From NCBI GenBank assembly GCA_038326775.1, contig JBBQKJ010000007.1, positions 16,826-80,825 of the forward strand: 64,000 bases of DNA, in the 5' to 3' direction. This document shows, piece by piece, positions 3,239 through 63,156 of this stretch. This DNA is from Candidatus Geothermincolia bacterium. Its GTDB lineage: Bacteria > Actinomycetota > Geothermincolia > Fen-727 > Anoxymicrobiaceae. A model generated the notes under the pieces. It did not search any database. It was not told where the DNA came from and saw nothing but the letters and a program-made list of their open reading frames with translations. The translations under genes were made by a program, and so were the position numbers. How positions within the stretch are numbered: position 1 is the stretch's first letter; each line of letters opens with the position of its first letter.

Positions 3239-3283
3239 ACTAATGAAATCAGATCTGACCCCGATTATTAGCCCCGATTATTA
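3239..3283. repeat. Half-copy (one arm) of the palindromic intergenic element, with a tandem duplication of its terminal 13-mer (gccccgattatta x2)
   Basis: ctaatgaaatcagatctgaccccgattatta is followed by gccccgattatta. It is identical to the right arm of the full elements at 16768-16860 and 38241-38334. Its final TTA (3281-3283) is the TAA stop codon of ruvC on the minus strand. Confidence 0.6.
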
Positions 3284-3769
3284 GCCGGTCAGCTCCTTGA
3301 GCCGCCTGGACTGCAGGTGGCATATCGCCATCGCCAGGGCGTCCGAGGCGTGCAGGGTGGCCGGCTGCTCCTTGAGGCCCAGAAGAGCGCCCACCATGTA
3401 GGCGACCTGCTCTTTTTTCGCGTTGCCGTTGCCCACGACCGCCATCTTCACCTGGAGGGGGGTGTATTCATCCCAGGGCTTTCGTGCGTGCCTGCAGGCG
3501 AGCAGTATCACACCGCGCGCCTGTCCCACCGTCATGGCGGTCTTCTGGTTTGTGTTGAAGAAAAGCTGCTCCAGCACCACCACGTCGGGGTCAGTCTCCA
3601 CGATAACCTTCGCGATCTCCGTGTAGAGGATATCAAGACGCTCGGACATGTCCGCCGAGCCCTTGGTTTTTATCGCTCCGTGGCTGAGCGCGCGCATCCG
3701 GCCGGACTCCTCGGCGACCAGGCCGTAACCGGTGTTGGTTATCCCCGGGTCTATGCCCAGCACCCTCAT
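3281..3769 (-). CDS. ruvC: Crossover junction endodeoxyribonuclease RuvC
   Basis: MRVLGIDPGITNTGYGLV matches the RuvC N-terminus, including the catalytic Asp. Overlaps yebC by 4 nt. Confidence 0.9.
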   Translation of the reverse strand: MRVLGIDPGITNTGYGLVAEESGRMRALSHGAIKTKGSADMSERLDILYTEIAKVIVETDPDVVVLEQLFFNTNQKTAMTVGQARGVILLACRHARKPWDEYTPLQVKMAVVGNGNAKKEQVAYMVGALLGLKEQPATLHASDALAMAICHLQSRRLKELTG

Positions 3770-9736: not shown

Positions 9737-10732
9737 TCAACCGGCGCCGTAGCGCGCGGCGAGCCGCTCCATGCCGCGGTCGAGCTGCTCCAGCACGGCC
9801 TTGTGCAGCGTCGCGTTGGCGCTGACGAGCGAGGACATCTGCCCTCCCCCACCTTGAGGGATCAGCGGGCACGGATCGAGAGACCCGCCGTAGGCGTCGC
9901 TGACTATCGCCCCCGCTTCCGAGGCTATCAACGCCGCGGCGGCGAGGTCGTAAGGGTAGTTGTTGAGGATATGGCCGTGGCCGACCTCAAGGAACATGCG
10001 GCGGACGTCGTCGACTTGCTCGGCCATCCGCTGGCCCGGGTCGACGTAGACGTCCATCTCCCCCTTGACAACGCGGGTGATGCTGAAGGTGGCGCTGCCC
10101 AGGTCGAAGTAGCCGCCGTCGACGGACGAGAGGTCGATGAGCTCACCGAGGACGGTCGTGAGCGGCTCAGCGGGCCTCCCCCGGTATCCCGCGGTCCAGA
10201 ATATGCGGTTCAGCGCGGTCGTGGTCGAGAGGTTGGGTTCGAGCGGCCTGTCTTCGTGCTCGACGCGAGCGCCCGCGCCCTTCAAGGCTATGAAAACGGC
10301 GTCGTTCTTTATCTCCCGCACGACGCCCAGGAAAACGTCACCTATGGTCAGGCTTTCCGCCTTCCCGTGGCTATACGGAGATACGGCGACCGAGACGCAG
10401 CACGACTCCAGGCCGGCGGCGGCGGGGCGGGTGCCGTCAATGGGGTCGATGATGAGAAGGAAGCGGGCGCCTGCCGACGCCACCAGTCCACGGTCTTCCG
10501 TGTAATAGGCGATGTCGCCGCGGGGGTCGAGCAGCTCGGCGATCTTCGCCTCGGCCGATTCGTCGATCGCGAAAGTGGTGTCGCCTGAAGCGCCGTGCCC
10601 CTCCAGGCCTTTCGCGGCGGCGCTCCCCATGCGCGGGCGCACCACTGAACGGACCTCTTCACACAGCCGCACGACCGTGTCGATGATGGGTGCGTTTTCT
10701 TTCCAGAATCGTTGCGCTTCCAGGGCGGACAT
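9737..10732 (-). CDS. Inositol monophosphatase / FBPase superfamily protein (SuhB/ImpA-like)
   Basis: Metal-binding motifs DPIDGT and WTAGYRG. Start placed at the internal ATG (MSALEAQRFW). The 80 upstream residues of the maximal ORF are Arg-rich junk. Confidence 0.78.
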   Translation of the reverse strand: MSALEAQRFWKENAPIIDTVVRLCEEVRSVVRPRMGSAAAKGLEGHGASGDTTFAIDESAEAKIAELLDPRGDIAYYTEDRGLVASAGARFLLIIDPIDGTRPAAAGLESCCVSVAVSPYSHGKAESLTIGDVFLGVVREIKNDAVFIALKGAGARVEHEDRPLEPNLSTTTALNRIFWTAGYRGRPAEPLTTVLGELIDLSSVDGGYFDLGSATFSITRVVKGEMDVYVDPGQRMAEQVDDVRRMFLEVGHGHILNNYPYDLAAAALIASEAGAIVSDAYGGSLDPCPLIPQGGGGQMSSLVSANATLHKAVLEQLDRGMERLAARYGAG

Positions 10733-13388: not shown

Positions 13389-13446
13389 AGCGCCACCGCC
13401 ATGCGCGAACCGCGTAAATCGTTTATCATTTCAACCATAAATGCAA

Positions 13447-13469
13447 GAAAGTAACCTGACCCCGATGTT
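13447..13469. repeat. Solo copy of the 15-mer TGACCCCGATGTTGC (arm-like fragment of the palindromic element family)
   Basis: Exact 15-mer shared with 63134-63148 and, as an inverted copy, with 63057-63071. It shares the core CTGACCCCGAT with the 94-bp elements. Confidence 0.45.
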
Positions 13470-13492
13470 GCACGGACGGAGGCGGCAAGCGC

Positions 13493-16756: not shown

Positions 16757-16767
16757 TTACCCCTCCT

Positions 16768-16860
16768 GATAATTGGGGTCAGATCTGATTTCATCAGTCA
16801 AGCTCAGGGTGGATCAGGCGAGATCGACACTGATGAAATCAGATCTGACCCCAATTATTA
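16768..16860. repeat. 93-bp palindromic intergenic element (perfect 28 to 31-bp inverted arms, 30-bp unique core)
   Basis: The left arm gataattggggtcagatctgatttcatcagt and right arm actgatgaaatcagatctgaccccaattatta are exact reverse complements. The terminal TTA (16858-16860) is the stop codon of the upstream minus-strand DUF2007 gene. The SD and ATG of the CDP-alcohol transferase follow 5 nt beyond the left arm. Confidence 0.8.
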
Positions 16861-17073
16861 GTCTATGTCCCAGATCTCGTTCAGTATTGCTCGAGCCTCC
16901 TCCGCGCGCTCCTCGGGCACCAGCACTCCGTGCTGGCCTCCGATGCCGGTGTAAGCGGAAGCTCCGGGCCGCCTTAGCATGACCGGGATGCCCTCCGCCC
17001 TGACGGCGGACTCGAGCATGCCCGCGGCTATCTGGTCCGGCGCCGTGGCGACCTCGGCCCACTCCCGGGGCAC
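16858..17073 (-). CDS. Small DUF2007-like protein (putative signal-transducing PII-like fold)
   Basis: ...LESAVRAEGIPVMLRR...HGVLVPEERAEEARAILNEI fits the DUF2007 pattern. Start chosen at the GTG at 17071-17073, 10 nt past the proS stop. The maximal ORF overlaps proS. Confidence 0.45.
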   Translation of the reverse strand: MPREWAEVATAPDQIAAGMLESAVRAEGIPVMLRRPGASAYTGIGGQHGVLVPEERAEEARAILNEIWDID

Positions 17074-28873: not shown

Positions 28874-28999
28874 CCGCCACCCGCGCTGTCATACCTGGAA
28901 TAATACTGTGCCGGCTGCCCACTTCCTTGAAAACGACACGCTTTCCGTCATATCTGTGTCACCGGCTCGAACGCATAAGGCGGCTCGAGCACCCACACC

Positions 29000-29062
29000 G
29001 TGTGTTACATTATAGCACTATATAGTAATATATTATAATATTGTCAACTAATGTGACTTTTG
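29000..29062. promoter_or_regulatory. Sharp AT-rich island (ttatagcactatatagtaatatattataatattgtcaactaatgtgac) in the xerC upstream region
   Basis: About 80% AT over 55 bp inside a 66% GC genome. It lies 130-190 bp upstream of the xerC start and contains TATAAT-like and TTGTCA-like hexamers on the minus strand. Its function was not established. Confidence 0.3.
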
Positions 29063-32042: not shown

Positions 32043-32857
32043 TCAGCCGGCACGGAGCTTTGGTTTGACGCTCGCGGGTGCGTTGAAACCCGAGTACGCG
32101 CCCCTGGTTGTAACGGTGACCTCCGGCGTTTCGGCGATCGACGGAATTGTGACCTTCATCAACACCCGCTTCATCCGCATGGTCGCCTTATCGACGGTTA
32201 TCGTCATGTCGGTCTTGCCGTTAGGGTTCGAGTAGACGTCCAGGCCGTAGGTGGAAGGCTGCAAGTGCCCTGTTCGGGCCCCACGATGGCGGACGCGCCC
32301 AGCCGGTACTTCTCACCCATAGAAAAGGATATCGTGTAGTCATGAGCGGTCTGGCTTTCGAGCGCGCAGTTGTCCACCAGGTCGGCGAACCTTGCTATTA
32401 CGCGGCGCGCATTTGCGGAGACCATACCGGGATCGCCTTCGACTCTGTACCAGTCACTTCCCTCGACCCGCGTGTACCTCACGCCGTCACGGGTGTATGT
32501 CTCGTAAGAACCGCCGGGGGAATCGACCACCATGTGCCCGTCGAGGGCGCCACCTCCGTTGGAAGCAAGCTCGGTGGTGAAGGCGGCCTTATTGTCCAGC
32601 TCCGGCCTGCCCGCTATATCGAGGCTGGTGGTGCCGCTATAGCGATAGCTCTTCAACGAGAGTAACTCCTCGACTGAACGCGCCAGCACCAGCGCGGGCG
32701 TCAGCTTCAGGCCCTCATCTACCGCGCAGCCGGCCGCGAATAGGAGCGAGAAGGCCGCCAGGGCCGCGGCCACCGCGACCGCTGCTCGTTCGAAAGCGGC
32801 CGGGGTACTCTCGGCGCGGCGGTTGCGTCTAACACGAGTCATCCTGCCCTCAGCCAT
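32043..32857 (-). CDS. Putative lipoprotein split by a frameshift (two frames: 32204-32857 and 32043-32264)
   Basis: Signal peptide plus lipobox (LLFAAGC|A) after MAEGRMTRVRRNRR. The beta-rich mature domain continues convincingly in a second frame (LQPSTYGLDVYSNPNGKTDMTITVDKATMRMK...) after a G4C3 homopolymer run near 32265-32285. The frame-1 tail (CSLPPTAWTSTRTLTARPT) looks non-protein. Confidence 0.4.
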
Positions 32858-33057
32858 GGCCAGTATCCACCTCCAGCCGGAGTTCTCGCGGCATGTCTCG
32901 GCAGGTTGCCCGGCCTTCTCCAAGGCAACTGTTGAGAGTTCAAAGATGTTCCGGTCCGACTTGCAGAGATTACTGTCCCCGGACAACAGAGAACCAGGTG
33001 GCCTGTAGGCGACATGACAAGGCCGGGTGACGAGAAAACTATGGAATCTGCTCAACC

Positions 33058-33843
33058 GTGTCGAAAGGTACTACAAGTGGTTTGATGCTGGCATCGCAAG
33101 GGTTAATTGATGGATGTCGGCCTACCAGTTGCCTCATTCAGCGAGAGCTTGGCCTTGGCAACTCCGGGATATCATGCATGACAATTAATACCACGTGGCT
33201 CAGCTTCCTGTCGGGTCTGGATGTTTGCTCCAACCTGCTTGCGACAGGACGCCACAAGAAGATCCTTATAGTCTCCTCTGATATCTCATCGAACAATCTT
33301 AACTTCAAACACCGGGAAAGCAGCACCCTTTTCGGTGACCTGGCGGCGGCGGCCGTTCTGATCCGAACGCCGGAAGGTGAATCGAGTTGTGTCCACGCGG
33401 CCCACTTCGAGACCTACGGATATGCGGCCGGGTTCACGCAGATCCCCGGCGGCGGAACACGCCTGAATCCCATTTTTCCCGAGACCAGGAAAGAGGATTA
33501 TTACTTCCAGATGGATGGTCCGTCGGTGCTGAAATCCACGTTGAAACACGCTCTGGATTTCCTGGAAAGACTGCGGCCGGGCCTGTCAAAAGGGCTTGGT
33601 GACATCAAGCTGGTCGTACCCCACCAGGCCAGCAAAGTGGCGCTTGAAGCCCACAGCATTTTTGGAATGGACCAGGATCGTGTAGTGAAAACGATCGAGA
33701 CGGTCGGCAACTGTATCGCGGCCTCGCTTCCAAACGCGCTCTACGAGGCGATAAAACAGGGCCGGCTCGCCCGTGGGGACAAAGCACTGCTTCTGGGCAC
33801 GGGTGCGGGGCTGACCCTGGGGGGAATGATACTCACATATTGA
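33058..33843 (+). pseudogene. FabH (KAS III)-like ORF, N-terminally truncated (about 80 residues missing) and lacking the canonical active-site Cys motif; possible gene remnant
   Basis: Aligns with E. coli FabH residues about 80-317. His (VPHQAS) and Asn (VGNCIAAS) of the triad and the C-terminal GTGAGLTLGG are present. The region corresponding to AACAGF reads NTTWLSF. An in-frame stop at 33028-33030 precludes a longer N-terminus; the first start-like codon is the GTG at 33058. Confidence 0.55.
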
Positions 33844-33968
33844 AATCCAACGGGGATAGCCAGGCTCGGTTTACCTGGCGCTCCACGGAAAGAGCCGCGG
33901 CTTCAGCAAGCCGCCGGGTGTCGACCGTCCCACTGAAACTGTAGTTGTACGCCTGCTTCACCATTCAG

Positions 33969-38240: not shown

Positions 38241-38334
38241 TAATACCTGGGGTCAGATCTGATTTCATTAGTTGCATCCCCCTGGCTGTGCCACCGCCAA
38301 GAACTAATGAAATCAGATCTGACCCCGATTATTA
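38241..38334. repeat. 94-bp palindromic intergenic element (perfect 27-bp inverted arms, unique 33-bp core)
   Basis: The left arm taatacctggggtcagatctgatttcattagtt and right arm aactaatgaaatcagatctgaccccgattatta are inverted repeats. The terminal TTA (38332-38334) is the trmD stop codon. It lies between trmD and rplS. Confidence 0.8.
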
Positions 38335-40093: not shown

Positions 40094-40139
40094 GAATATC
40101 CTCCTTATGTTCCATTCTATTGTAGCAAAAAAGGCTCCA

Positions 40140-42484: not shown

Positions 42485-42693
42485 GCCTCTCCTCCTTTTC
42501 CCTGGCCCCGCTGGACCAAATGCTGAATTCCTCGCTTTTACTCTCAGATTTGACCGTTCCGGCTGATTTACCTTAACAGGTTTCGCCGGAGCCCGCCCTC
42601 TGACCTCCCTGCCCAACTCGGAGGAAATGCTTCTTTCGTCTCGAAGGGGGACGCGGTATATACTTCACACAGCGCTATCCGGGAGGAGCAGAC

Positions 42694-49970: not shown

Positions 49971-50963
49971 TTAATTCGATGGAGAGCCGCCCATGCCCTC
50001 CCAGGCCATAGCGGCGGCGCCTATCACCCCGGCGTCGCCCCCCAGGGCGGAAAGCGCGATGGATACGTCACTGACCAGCGCCGGCACTCCGCGTTCCGCC
50101 ACGACGCGCCTCACATCCTCCGGGCGGAGGTAAGGCGAGCGGGCCACACCGCCCCCGAGGACGACCATCTCGGGGTCCAGCAGGTGGACCAGGTTCACTA
50201 TTCCAAGGCCCAGGTGATAGGTGATGTTCTCGAAAGCCCCCTTCGCGGCGGCGTCACCCCTCTGTGCGGCCGCGGAAATCATCTCCCCGGTGATGCGCCC
50301 CGGCTCGGACACGCTCATCTCGTGCAGAAGGGAGCGTGAGTCACCTGCGGCGAGGCGGACCGCCTCGCGTTCGAGCGCCGTTCCCGAAGCAACGGCCTCC
50401 AGGCAGCCGCGCCGGCCGCAGCCGCACTCCGGGCCGGCCGGGTCCACGGTCATGTGGCCGATCTCGCCCGCTGTCCCCCGGTGGCCTCTATAGATGAGCC
50501 CGCCCGCGAAGATGCCGCCCCCGATACCGGTCCCCAGCGTCAGGTAAACAAAGTCGTCGACGCCTCCAGCCACCCCCGCGAAGCGCTCCCCCACCGCGGC
50601 GGCGTTAGCGTCATTGTCGAGGAAAGTGAGCAGCCCGGTGCGCTCGGCCACCAGCTGACGCAGCGGCACCATGGACCAGGCGATGTTGGGCGAGCTTACC
50701 AGCAAGCCCTCCCGGTGAAGGATGAACCCGGCCGCACCTATGCCGACCGCCTTAACCTCGAGGCCGTCCTCGCGAGAAGAAGCGACGCCGGCGGCGACTA
50801 GCTCCAGCAGGGACTCCACCATCCTGGTCCCGTCCTCCGACGGCGAGGGGGCCACGCCGCGACGCAGTATCCTCCCGAGGGGGTCCACCGACGCCAGCGC
50901 CATTTTTGTCGCCCCCAGGTCTATCCCCAGCACGCACTCGCCGTTCGTAGTAGCTTCCGTCAC
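49971..50963 (-). CDS. ROK family sugar kinase (glucokinase-like)
   Basis: GIDLGATK... is the ATPase N-terminus. The ROK zinc motif is CGCGRRGCLE. The GTG start at 50961-50963 is preceded by GGAGGAAGG. Confidence 0.8.
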   Translation of the reverse strand: MTEATTNGECVLGIDLGATKMALASVDPLGRILRRGVAPSPSEDGTRMVESLLELVAAGVASSREDGLEVKAVGIGAAGFILHREGLLVSSPNIAWSMVPLRQLVAERTGLLTFLDNDANAAAVGERFAGVAGGVDDFVYLTLGTGIGGGIFAGGLIYRGHRGTAGEIGHMTVDPAGPECGCGRRGCLEAVASGTALEREAVRLAAGDSRSLLHEMSVSEPGRITGEMISAAAQRGDAAAKGAFENITYHLGLGIVNLVHLLDPEMVVLGGGVARSPYLRPEDVRRVVAERGVPALVSDVSIALSALGGDAGVIGAAAMAWEGMGGSPSN

Positions 50964-51666
50964 TGCCCTTCCTCCAGCCGAGCTTCTTAAGCGCTATTCC
51001 GGCAACGCCCTGTTCGGCCTCTTTCTTGCTCGTTCCCGCCACCGGGCCGAAAGTCTTTGTGCCTACCACCACGCTCGCGTGGAAAGTCTTGAAGTGGTCG
51101 GGGCCCTCGGCCTTTATCCTGTAGCGTGGAACGGAGCCTACCCTCTTTGTCGACAGCTCCTGCAGCTCGCTCTTGAAGTCACCTGGCCCCCACTTCACTA
51201 TCTCGTGAATAAGCCTCTCGAGCGACGAGATTACAAAACCCCGCGCCACGTCGAAGCCGCCGTCCATGTACAGGGCGCCCACCACCGCCTCGAAGGTGTC
51301 GGCCATGATCGACTGCTTCTGCCCGCCGCCGCTCGCTTCCTCACCCTTTCCGAGCAGAACGTGGTGCTCGAACCCGAGACTCAGGGCCACGTCAGCCAGG
51401 GCCTTTCCCCTGACGAGCGGCGAGCGAAGCTTGGTCAGCTCGCCCTCGGGCAGGTCGGGGAAGTCCTCGTAGAGCAGGTGGGTCACCGCGAGTTCGACCA
51501 CCGAGTCGCCCAGGAACTCCAGTCTCTCGTTCGAGTCTATGTAAGGCAGGCCCTTCTCGTTGACATAGGACCTGTGACAGAGCGCCTGGAAAAGCAGCGA
51601 GGGGTCATTGAACTTGTATCCGAGCAGGTCTTCAACTTCTCCGAGAACCGGATCTGGTTCTGTCAC
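50752..51666 (-). CDS. rnc: Ribonuclease III (Rnc); annotated C-terminus is a long low-complexity tail overlapping the ROK gene
   Basis: Catalytic signature ERLEFLGDSV. dsRBD with ...KKEAEQGVAGIALKKLG. The conserved part ends near residue 235. The remaining 70 residues are Arg/Gly-rich and overlap ROK by 211 bp; this is a possible frameshift artefact or a genuine extension. Confidence 0.82.
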   Translation of the reverse strand: MTEPDPVLGEVEDLLGYKFNDPSLLFQALCHRSYVNEKGLPYIDSNERLEFLGDSVVELAVTHLLYEDFPDLPEGELTKLRSPLVRGKALADVALSLGFEHHVLLGKGEEASGGGQKQSIMADTFEAVVGALYMDGGFDVARGFVISSLERLIHEIVKWGPGDFKSELQELSTKRVGSVPRYRIKAEGPDHFKTFHASVVVGTKTFGPVAGTSKKEAEQGVAGIALKKLGWRKGSDGSYYERRVRAGDRPGGDKNGAGVGGPPREDTASRRGPLAVGGRDQDGGVPAGASRRRRRFFSRGRPRG

Positions 51667-55769: not shown

Positions 55770-55916
55770 CGCCCTGGATTCATCTCTCATCGTTAACACC
55801 CCAGGACAGGTTCTCTCTCGGGGAGTGCGTTCCTGCGTCAACATAACCCCGGGGACGACCGGGGCCACGCGGACGGCGGCTCGACTCAAGAAAACAGGTC
55901 AGACCCCTTGTAAAAG

Positions 55917-62214: not shown

Positions 62215-63054
62215 GCCCCCCTCACACCTCTCACGCGCGGGTGAGCCACCCTGTCCCCGCGAATTCCCGCGCCTCGTTCAACATGAAGGATGACATCGGA
62301 CAGAAGGACGCTTCCATCAAAGTGTTCAGCGACGTGCCGGTCATCCCTGAGCGCGCCATGTACAAGGACTCTCGCCGCGAGGGGCACGACTCCATCGGCA
62401 CCACCAGCCCGGCCTCGGACTTCTACCTGGCGGAAGGGACCACCACCTGGGGCTTTACGACCTACGTGCTGGTTCAGAATCCCGGCAACGAGACCAACGA
62501 CGTCACGATGACGTACATGACCGGTTCCGGAGCGAAAGCGCAGGCGCCGTTCACTATGGGACCGAACTCGCGCAAGACCATAAGGGTGAACGACGTGTCC
62601 GGCATGGGCAACACGGACTTCTCGACCAGGGTACACGGCTCCAAACCTGTCATTGCCGAGAGAGCCATGTACTGGGGATCGGGCACAACGCTCGGTGAAG
62701 CGTGCCACGACTCCATCGGAATGGCATCGCCGCACATGACCTTCTATCTTCCCGACGGCCAGGCCGACGCCGATACCGAGACCTGGACGCTCGTCCAGAA
62801 CCCCAACAGCAGCCCCGTTACGGTGGACATCACGTACCATGACCCCGTCGGGGACAGGGAACATCACCAGGACTGAGACCATCGGAGCCAACTCGCGGGT
62901 CACCTTCGGGATGCAGCAGCACTCCAACCTTGAGGGGCGCGCATCGATCCTGGTGAAGAGCAGGACCGCCGGCAAGAAGATAATGGTAGAACGCTCCATG
63001 TACTGGAGCGGCAAGGGCGCGGGTACCGACACGATCGGCGGGTATTCGGACTAG
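62211..63054 (+). CDS. Tandem-repeat protein (about 2.3 copies of a 110-aa unit) interrupted by a +1 frameshift near 62845-62850
   Basis: ORF 62211-62876 and ORF 62839-63054 carry the same repeat unit (PVI[AP]ERAMY...HDSIG...FYL.[ED]G...TW.LVQNP...T..TY-M-T.SG...). Removing one C in taccatgacc restores ...ITYMTPSGTG..., parallel to ...MTYMTGSGAK in repeat 1. The start (GTG at 62211) overlaps the upstream hydrolase stop. Confidence 0.45.
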
Positions 63055-63055
63055 C

Positions 63056-63150
63056 GTAACATCGGGGTCCGGTCAAGAAGCTGCGTTTTCCGGCTGGGGT
63101 CATGTCGAACGTCTGCAATGCGGTTTTTTGACCTGACCCCGATGTTGCGT
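63056..63150. repeat. Variant copy of the palindromic element family (arms gtaacatcggggtccggtcaag / cttgacctgaccccgatgttgc, 49-nt core)
   Basis: The inverted arms match at about 20 of 22 positions around the conserved ATCGGGGTC/GACCCCGAT core. It begins 2 nt after the TAG stop of the repeat-protein gene. Its right arm forms the -35 and spacer of the rpmB promoter. Confidence 0.6.
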
Positions 63151-63156
63151 TATTAT
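63128..63156 (+). promoter_or_regulatory. Near-consensus sigma-70 promoter for rpmB: TTGACC-N17-TATTAT
   Basis: TTGACC (63128-63133), 17-nt spacer (tgaccccgatgttgcgt), TATTAT (63151-63156). AGGAA SD and the TTG start of rpmB lie about 35 nt downstream. Confidence 0.5.

Follow-up and report, generated by a model that had tools for sequence, protein, structure and literature searches.

The 64-kb window studied here, by which we mean the whole stretch of DNA that was analysed (64,000 nucleotides of contig JBBQKJ010000007.1 from a Candidatus Geothermincolia bacterium), carries copies of a palindromic intergenic repeat that we call F1. We conclude that F1 is probably a non-autonomous mobile, hairpin-forming intergenic repeat of the class that includes REPINs (repetitive extragenic palindromic (REP) doublets forming hairpins) and MITEs (miniature transposable elements with inverted repeats), resident in uncultured Ca. 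Geothermincolia-like Actinomycetota. Dispersal, turnover at orthologous junctions, copying of whole units, compensated pairing and an invariant octamer together make up the signature of non-autonomous mobile hairpin repeats. The closest known elements are REPINs and Correia-type MITEs, and we regard F1 as a previously undescribed family of this familiar type. An earlier note on the window, made from the sequence alone, had proposed a family of MITE-like or REP-like palindromic intergenic elements; about 18 loci, presence, absence and replacement at gene junctions, and co-varying stems bear this out.

Copies of F1 in the window were located with a 20-mer, GGGGTCAGATCTGATTTCAT, which matches exactly at five positions (3243, minus; 16775, plus; 16833, minus; 38249, plus; 38307, minus). 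No match occurred in 100 dinucleotide-preserving shuffles of the window (expected 0), in agreement with the earlier claim that chance recurrence is negligible. The matches fall in two full palindromes (96 bp at 16766-16861 and 94 bp at 38241-38334) and one solo arm (3239-3271), rather than in the three canonical copies first counted. The stems, initially described as perfect, are near-perfect: a repeat finder returned inverted arms of 33 nt that are 97% complementary around a 30-nt spacer for copy 1 (16766-16798/16829-16861), and 33-nt arms that are 91% complementary around a 28-nt spacer for copy 2 (38241-38273/38302-38334), in which three outer positions are mismatched. The parts are as follows.

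16766..16798, F1 copy 1, arm on the side of the downstream gene (CTGATAATTGGGGTCAGATCTGATTTCATCAGT); the CDP-alcohol phosphatidyltransferase gene (ATG 16756, minus strand) has a GGAGGGG ribosome-binding site, and the first G of this is the outermost base of the arm
16799..16828, F1 copy 1, spacer (hairpin loop region), 30 nt, unconserved and unrelated to the spacers of other copies
16829..16861, F1 copy 1, arm on the side of the upstream gene; in the outer CTAATAA module the first TAA serves as the DUF2007 stop codon (16858-16860, minus strand)
38241..38273, F1 copy 2, arm on the rplS side; outer module aberrant (TTAATACCT), with the flank past the octamer similar to a remnant at the same site in relative L027
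38274..38301, F1 copy 2, spacer, 28 nt, orthologous to the spacer in relative L037 (TrmD 93% identical)
38302..38334, F1 copy 2, arm on the trmD side; its outer module contains the TAA with which trmD stops (38332-38334, minus strand)
3239..3271, minus strand, F1 solo arm between ruvC and ruvA (CTAATAATCGGGGTCAGATCTGATTTCATTAGT)
3272..3284, minus strand, extra tandem copy of the outer 13-mer CTAATAATCGGGG, including the ruvC stop codon (3281-3283)
55884..55915, possible and uncertain decayed remnant between the DivIVA-like and YceD genes, with a GGGGTCTGACC core and 69% identity to the F1 arm

All three loci lie within minus-strand strings of housekeeping genes as annotated with Pfam (ruvC/ruvA; proS-DUF2007/CDP-alcohol phosphatidyltransferase; trmD/rplS), and at each of them the first TAA of the outer module is the stop codon of the upstream gene. 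At copy 1 the other end of the element abuts the ribosome-binding site of the next gene, and copy 2 is followed by a promoter-like sequence, TCCACA-16-TATAGT, the -10 region of which is kept in all relatives examined. Only 22 nt separate the solo arm from the ruvA start codon, so there is no room for a partner arm at this junction. The third locus was correctly read in the earlier note as one arm plus a tandem duplication of its terminal 13-mer. This 13-mer (outer module plus GGGG) is present in two copies in the window (3259-3284) and in three in two independent Logan assemblies of the same strain with identical RuvC (L025 3486-3524; L026 1226-1264). The array is thus a small variable-number tandem repeat that carries the ruvC stop codon, and its different copy numbers in assemblies of one strain point to slippage. 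Outer modules are also duplicated in tandem in L029 (TGCAACATTG, twice), L017 (TGCAACACCG, twice) and L015 (CTGATA, twice). The rest of the window is syntenic housekeeping DNA, in which Pfam scans found no transposase.

To define the unit, we aligned 37 arm occurrences from inside and outside the window, comprising 22 unique arms. The 33-nt consensus is CTAATAA-NN-GGGGTCAG-ATCTGATTTCAT[T/C]AGT, and similarity ends sharply on both sides. Each arm consists of an outer C-TAA-TAA-NN module with two in-frame TAA codons, then the octamer GGGGTCAG, which is invariant, and then an inner module particular to the family, ATCTGATTTCATTAGT; it contains a perfect 10-bp palindrome, TCAGATCTGA. Arm G+C content is 33%, compared with about 64% for the window. 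The arms extend to the ends of the element as terminal inverted repeats, and no open reading frame lies between them in any locus examined. Spacers in the six F1 doublets are 27-32 nt long, host-like in composition and mostly unrelated among copies. When folded as RNA, as the earlier note had suggested, the full copies reached -55.9 kcal/mol (copy 1) and -54.1 kcal/mol (copy 2), with z of about -8; folding as DNA was equally significant. Solo arms folded no better than shuffled sequences (z -0.7 to -2.2), and the arm is therefore not a convincing self-contained REP-type palindrome. By inspection, the 22 unique arms showed no consistent covariation of the outer CTAAT/ATTAG pairing.

We searched genome and metagenome collections with the exact F1 20-mer as seed. 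It was found in one species-representative genome (a metagenome-assembled genome (MAG) of Ca. Anoxymicrobiaceae, class Ca. Geothermincolia) and in 21 metagenome contigs. These add about 15 distinct, unlinked F1 loci to those of the window, or about 18 in total, across several related genomes. The neighbours are unrelated, ordinary genes, among them those for CbiM, enoyl-CoA hydratase, B12-binding proteins and a methyltransferase, and the best protein matches of the flanking genes are to uncultured Actinomycetota or Geothermincolia MAGs. All loci are intergenic except one match, L012 7215-7234, which overlies a coding start (ATGAAATCAGATCTGACCCC = MKSDLTP...) on an unrelated contig and is consistent with chance in a very large collection. 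That copies in relatives would be intergenic thus held throughout, this match aside, but they are not always paired as hairpins: complete doublets were found on four contigs, a fifth contig ends within its second arm, and several others carry solo arms or a decayed partner, as in L001. Many metagenome contigs terminate inside an F1 arm, and those of the window strain and of a relative with 96% identity in CDP-alcohol phosphatidyltransferase do so in at least eight Logan assemblies. Breakage within the arm is what a multi-copy repeat produces, and an assembly artefact in the window is excluded by it.

Comparison of orthologous junctions revealed that the elements come and go. At trmD/rplS, F1 is present in the window and in L037, the relative with 93% TrmD identity. 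L029 (TrmD 80%) has a doublet of a sister family, F2, at this site, and L030 (81%) has a doublet of another, F4, the first bases of which replace the last trmD codons and which is followed by the remnant of an F2 right arm. Only remnants are left in L027 (80%) and L032 (76%), and no such element is present in L033 and L035 (74-75%). The trmD frame of L030 enters the F4 element at 10681-10702 (...PDLGSGLES*), and the repeat supplies the C terminus and the stop codon. At the junction of copy 1, F1 is present in relatives of 96% identity, an unrelated 100-nt spacer takes its place in L044, and the spacer is 1 nt long in L048 and L049 (GAC TGA G ATG). Between the UPF0102 and DUF6311 genes, an F4 doublet in L029 fills the gap from just past the stop codon to the start codon, L030 retains the left arm and spacer only, and the window is empty. 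L029 also carries two F2 doublets, at ftsY/hyp338 and hyp338/LUD, that have their arms and their spacer in common, which indicates that the whole doublet was copied. The states of these junctions are gains, losses, halvings and replacements, and not those of a fixed structural feature. The first bases of a copy fall within the upstream stop codon or directly behind it, and its far end can lie at the next ribosome-binding site or start codon.

Two further elements in the window, which had been described as a diverged copy and a solo 15-mer of the same family, are real but share with F1 only the octamer GGGGTCAG and its neighbours. They match F2, a family well represented in relatives with the arm TGCAACAYY-GGGGTCAG-GTCAyTTT..TGCA, and the supposed 15-mer is a complete 34-nt arm.

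63052..63152, F2 doublet between a plus-strand gene (stop codon TAG 63052-63054) and rpmB; arms approximately GCAACATCGGGGTC[A/C]GGTCAA..., RNA fold -61.6 kcal/mol, z -8.1
13439..13472, minus strand, F2 solo arm, 34 nt (TGCAACATCGGGGTCAGGTTACTTTCTTGCATTT), in the divergent PAP2/glycosyltransferase spacer; kept in L044 (79% identity)

The placement of the two, one between plus-strand genes and the other in a divergent spacer, contradicts the earlier statement that all copies sit between co-directional minus-strand genes. The right arm of the F2 doublet and its flank (63128-63156) form a promoter-like TTGACC-17-TATTAT sequence (10/12) facing rpmB. Judged from this motif, the doublet may supply the promoter of rpmB, the gene for ribosomal protein L28.

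In all families the octamer is either terminal on the outer side of the arm or set back from that end by 9 nt, and the inner modules differ: ATCTGATTTCATTAGT in F1, GTCAyTTTTGTGCA in F2, [G/A]CACCnTGACATGAA in F3, GTCTTGAATCGTGAATTT in F4 and ACCCCTTTCATTGCA in F5. It occurs 12 times in the window against 3.8 expected, and 11 times in L029 against 1.15 expected; 7 of the 12 and 10 of the 11 occurrences, respectively, are within intergenic elements. Coding octamers in the window number 5 against about 4 expected, so that the excess is confined to the elements. L029 harbours five doublets in 20 kb. F1 arms adjoin F2 arms at one junction in three different loci, and the boundary between sequences of one family and another falls at the octamer in three cases (the right arm of window copy 2, L030 trmD/rplS and L030 hyp338/LUD). 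These three examples hint that replacement may be bounded by the shared octamer core. A fifth octamer-bearing doublet with arms GGGGTC[A/T]GACCCCTTTnnTTGCnTTC also lies in the 5' untranslated region (5'UTR) of rpsP (L029 8763-8926; L030 8746-8887), downstream of a conserved TACAAT -10 box, and the window spacer 40094-40139 is its empty counterpart. A possible 4-nt duplication, TGGA, surrounds this doublet in L029 and L030.

Pairing within the stems was examined by covariation. For the six F2 doublets, including the window copy, 11 of 31 pairs have changed on both sides, none of 500 shuffles reached the score on any measure and no slid register approached it, while GGGGTC.GGTC is invariant. F2 has thus kept its pairing while a short motif stayed constant in sequence, and the covariation evidence is strong in this family. 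It is weak in F1, in which 96.5% of cells are paired in six doublets, both partners have changed in three pairs, namely those of the two NN positions and of the T/C position, and the score was matched by 1 of 500 column shuffles; these figures are suggestive of stem pairing maintained through compensatory change.

Several observations weigh against F1 as a mobile repeat. The covariation set for F1 comprises six sequences, and seeding with an exact 20-mer overstates arm conservation by design. Spacers are unrelated although arms are identical, which is unusual for copies of one master element. An GGGGTCAG hairpin or remnant is present at trmD/rplS in 6 of 8 relatives examined, which could mean a selected function of the site and not an insertion hot spot. 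The ruvC/ruvA solo arm is kept in the 90.6%-identical L015, where 30 of 33 positions match, the same rate as in the flanks; arms that diverge with their flanks give no sign of special constraint on resident copies. A crude scan for HUH/Y1 motifs in 226 kb, a fraction of several genomes, gave no match. A phmmer search of 348 kb, again such a fraction, with approximate queries for IS608 TnpA, ISDra2 TnpA and the RAYT (REP-associated tyrosine transposase) of E. coli gave nothing below E=2, and no repeat-flanked RAYT gene was found in the same 348 kb. There is also no unambiguous target-site duplication: apart from the arms, no direct repeat is common to the six F1 doublets. The TA at either end (C|TA|ATAA...TTAT|TA|G) would fit the TA duplication raised in the earlier note, but this dinucleotide is a palindrome that belongs to the inverted repeat, so that such a duplication is inseparable from the arms. 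An IS630-style CTAG/TA target fits most F1 ends, and the empty sites available for comparison, those of L048 and L044, have diverged too far around the junction to be informative; TA flanks of F2 are inconsistent.

A parent element was equally elusive, with no transposase among about 40 open reading frames scanned with Pfam beside copies and throughout the window, no similar sequence in 72,556 plasmids, and no match for F1, F2 or F4 arms among IMG/VR viral contigs. The earlier MITE assignment therefore stands as to terminal inverted repeats and variable interiors, but the strict diagnosis is unproven for want of an unambiguous target duplication and a parent insertion sequence.

As a mobile repeat, F1 would work as follows. 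A trans-acting enzyme would recognise the octamer and copy the whole hairpin, as single-stranded DNA or a cruciform; analogy with known systems suggests a RAYT-type Y1 transposase or a DDE transposase for this part. Surviving insertions would be those in the stop-to-start gap of a compact genome of 64% G+C, into which the element brings its own TAA stop codon, and solo arms would be products of deletion or decay. Copies inside operons are expected to be transcribed, as stems of about 33 bp and about -55 kcal/mol. Such stems might block 3' exonucleases or be cut by RNase III, a gene for which (Ribonuclease_3 and dsrm domains) lies in the window at 50752-51666 on the minus strand; processing of the predicted long double-stranded RNA by this enzyme is feasible. 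The earlier note had put forward attenuation and protein binding as further possible roles of the RNA hairpins. The expression of neighbouring cistrons could in this way be uncoupled or terminated, as a side effect or in a co-opted role.

We also considered that the hairpins are RNA elements selected by the host, acting as intercistronic terminators, stabilisers of mRNA 3' ends or RNase III sites, with their likeness due to recruitment or convergence and not to selfish spread. The copies directly follow stop codons and are extremely stable, the G+C-rich octamer at the stem base and the symmetric A/T-rich flanks resemble those of bidirectional terminators, and RNase III is encoded in the window. 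At trmD/rplS a hairpin or remnant is present in each close relative just upstream of the conserved rplS promoter (TCTGCTATAGT), and the distant L033 has, by eye, an ordinary hairpin with a T-rich tail. However, no U-run follows the stems and a terminator scan was blank at the F1 copies. At ruvC/ruvA the arm is only 22 nt from the ruvA start, so that the two genes are probably co-transcribed and a terminator would do harm. Sister copies are also found downstream of the rpsP promoter, within a 5'UTR, and in a divergent promoter region. For some relatives a spacer of 1 nt suffices where the window has copy 1, other junctions hold nothing, and solo arms that cannot form a hairpin persist. Convergence would not be expected to give identical 33-nt arms at unrelated junctions. 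On balance we think host-selected RNA elements an unlikely explanation.

A bolder version of the mobile repeat starts from the sharing of the octamer by at least five hairpin families. These could form a lineage-specific modular system, in which a dedicated enzyme would cut or recombine at the octamer in folded DNA. Spread would then occur by core-directed cassette exchange or stop-codon-targeted insertion and not by classical transposition, and the lineage would have come to rely on the hairpins as intercistronic terminators or processing sites. We give this proposal only a small chance of being right.

Less probable still, indeed a poor candidate in our judgement, is a protein-binding site at the DNA level. 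On this view a dimeric DNA-binding protein (nucleoid, gyrase or IHF-like, of the sort reported at some REP or BIME sequences) would use the octamer or the palindrome TCAGATCTGA as an operator or architectural site, or else the motif would resemble an uptake signal. The octamer is invariant over five arm families while its surroundings vary, each F1 arm holds the perfect palindrome, and a dprA gene lies in the syntenic block. Yet coding octamers are not enriched (5 against about 4 expected in the window), compensatory changes preserve intrastrand pairing that a duplex site would not need, and presence of the site differs among close relatives. Chance similarity or an assembly or chimera artefact (assembly artefacts were among the outcomes that, by the earlier note, would refute its proposal) explains 1 of the 22 out-of-window matches (L012, at a coding start) and is otherwise refuted by the empty shuffles, by independent Logan, ENA, JGI and NCBI assemblies that show identical elements at identical junctions, and by orthologous copies that diverge in step with their flanks.

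The reading of F1 as a mobile hairpin repeat invites comparison with described systems. REPINs consist of conserved units inverted about a less conserved spacer, show compensatory changes and leave singlets as decayed doublets (PMC3116915), and in Pseudomonas and Enterobacteria they are mobilised by RAYT Y1 transposases (PMC3116915, PMC3337134). F1 resembles them in its extragenic hairpins of about 100 nt, in two conserved units inverted about a less conserved spacer, and in compensatory changes. Further likenesses are that a lineage holds several related families, that singlets derive from doublets by decay or deletion, that no unambiguous target-site duplication is seen in F1, as none is made by REPINs, and that the elements persist for long by vertical descent. 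It differs in that its arm is not a convincing imperfect palindrome, lacks a GTAG-type 5' tetranucleotide (GTAG in E. coli), is AT-rich in a GC-rich genome and carries stop codons, and no RAYT was found in the 348 kb examined. REPIN/RAYT systems have been described mostly in Proteobacteria, whereas the host of F1 is an uncultured actinobacterial class.

MITEs of the Correia (CREE, Neisseria), ERIC and RUP type are likewise about 100-150 bp long, with terminal inverted repeats, between genes and flanked by TA (PMC2649163, PMC2229807, PMC10969869). Correia elements are co-transcribed, create promoters at their ends, and form RNA hairpins that RNase III binds or cleaves (PMC2649163); in function they are the elements that F1 most resembles, and the F2 copy at 63128-63156 similarly gives a promoter-like sequence ahead of rpmB. 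A conserved core and a clear TA duplication distinguish Correia elements from F1, in which the interiors are unrelated and the TA is inseparable from the repeat. A parent transposon is known neither for Correia-type elements nor for F1. SPRITE-type repeats of Streptococcus pneumoniae (PMC3049150, listed in PMC10969869) are reportedly, like F1, small dispersed terminator-like hairpins at gene ends; the F1 stems, of 33 bp, are much longer and have no U-tract after them. F1 shares with the integron attC site an imperfect palindrome with conserved ends and a variable centre just after a stop codon, and attC is active as a folded single strand; F1 is without core sites, integrase or cassette array, and its neighbours are housekeeping genes in conserved synteny. 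Closer in lineage are the MIRUs of Mycobacterium, reportedly described by Supply et al. in 1997 as intergenic repeats inside operons that overlap the flanking stop and start signals. These agree with F1 in being actinobacterial, in operons and over such signals, but they are direct tandem repeats, not palindromes, and have no sequence similarity to F1.

Known families and site types were screened separately. Rfam 15 gave no match at the gathering score in the window or in L027, L029 and L030, and at E<=1 only sub-threshold models of plant and animal miRNA precursors, that is, generic long hairpins. A tRNA or rRNA fragment, a possibility that the earlier note had named as one that would undo its proposal, was rejected, as the Rfam tRNA and rRNA models have no match in the window. 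An intrinsic terminator was rejected on a blank scan at both F1 palindromes, the tails of which (AAUUAUCAGG and AGGUAUUAAUG) contain no U-run. Uptake sequences are usually enriched in coding DNA, and the octamer is not. An integron attC site was rejected on the ends, CTAATAA/TTATTAG in place of RYYYAAC...GTTRRRY, and on the neighbouring housekeeping genes, the synteny of which is conserved; a syntenic XerC-like gene is the sole tyrosine recombinase nearby. A literature search for the core sequence returned unrelated primer matches and no relevant paper, and a 2024 review of prokaryotic MITEs makes no mention of Actinobacteria, Actinomycetota or Mycobacterium. That the repeat belongs to no recognised family, as first noted, is thus consistent with Rfam and the searched literature.

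Small hairpin repeats such as REP/REPIN, Correia and ERIC shape operon expression, genome rearrangement and assembly quality. To our knowledge, nearly all that have been characterised come from cultured Proteobacteria and Firmicutes. F1 and its sisters are dense and diverse hairpin repeats in an uncultured, deep-branching actinobacterial class, placed in the stop-to-start gaps of core operons (ruvCAB, rpsP-trmD/rplS and proS). They fragment short-read MAG assemblies of this lineage and can shift called gene ends, as in L030, where trmD ends inside an element. The shared octamer provides a handle for finding the mobilising enzyme and for asking whether the hairpins have been co-opted as terminators or RNase III sites. 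F1 is not a new category of biology but a known element class in a new lineage; the lineage, the density in relatives, the octamer common to the families and the placement at stop codons make it worth specialist follow-up.

Other features emerged from the same comparisons. An unrelated repeat family, ACCCATCGTGGAT...CCAGCCGTnACGATGGGTGCCCACCACnGGCAG, which has no Rfam match, is represented by a single copy in L030 (4282-4379), at the junction of ftsY with the gene after it, which in L029 is occupied by an F2 doublet, and by a tandem pair at dprA/xerC in L029 (18585-18760). Between dprA and xerC in the window lies an AT-rich block, CACATTAGTTGACAAT...TATAAT...GTAACAC (about 28990-29060, minus strand), that is kept in all relatives examined and looks like a strong promoter with a conserved transcript start. 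Upstream of a 48-aa DUF5679 gene lies a non-coding leader, about 110 nt long (window about 42485-42600, minus strand), which is very highly conserved in the window, L027, L029 and L030. It reads GGCGAAACCTGTAAAGGT...GGAACGGTCAAA...AAGAGTAAAAGCGAGGA, followed by a co-varying GGYCC...GGRCC hairpin ahead of the ribosome-binding site. The leader has no Rfam match at E<=1 and a weak consensus fold (-13 kcal/mol); its conservation makes an undescribed cis-regulatory RNA possible. Finally, the segment at 32200-33950 has a G+C content of 0.56, compared with about 0.64, and contains a KAS-III-like (FabH-type) gene on the opposite strand, between homologues of DUF6311 and DUF6612. It is absent from the syntenic regions of L029 and L030 and is probably an insertion.

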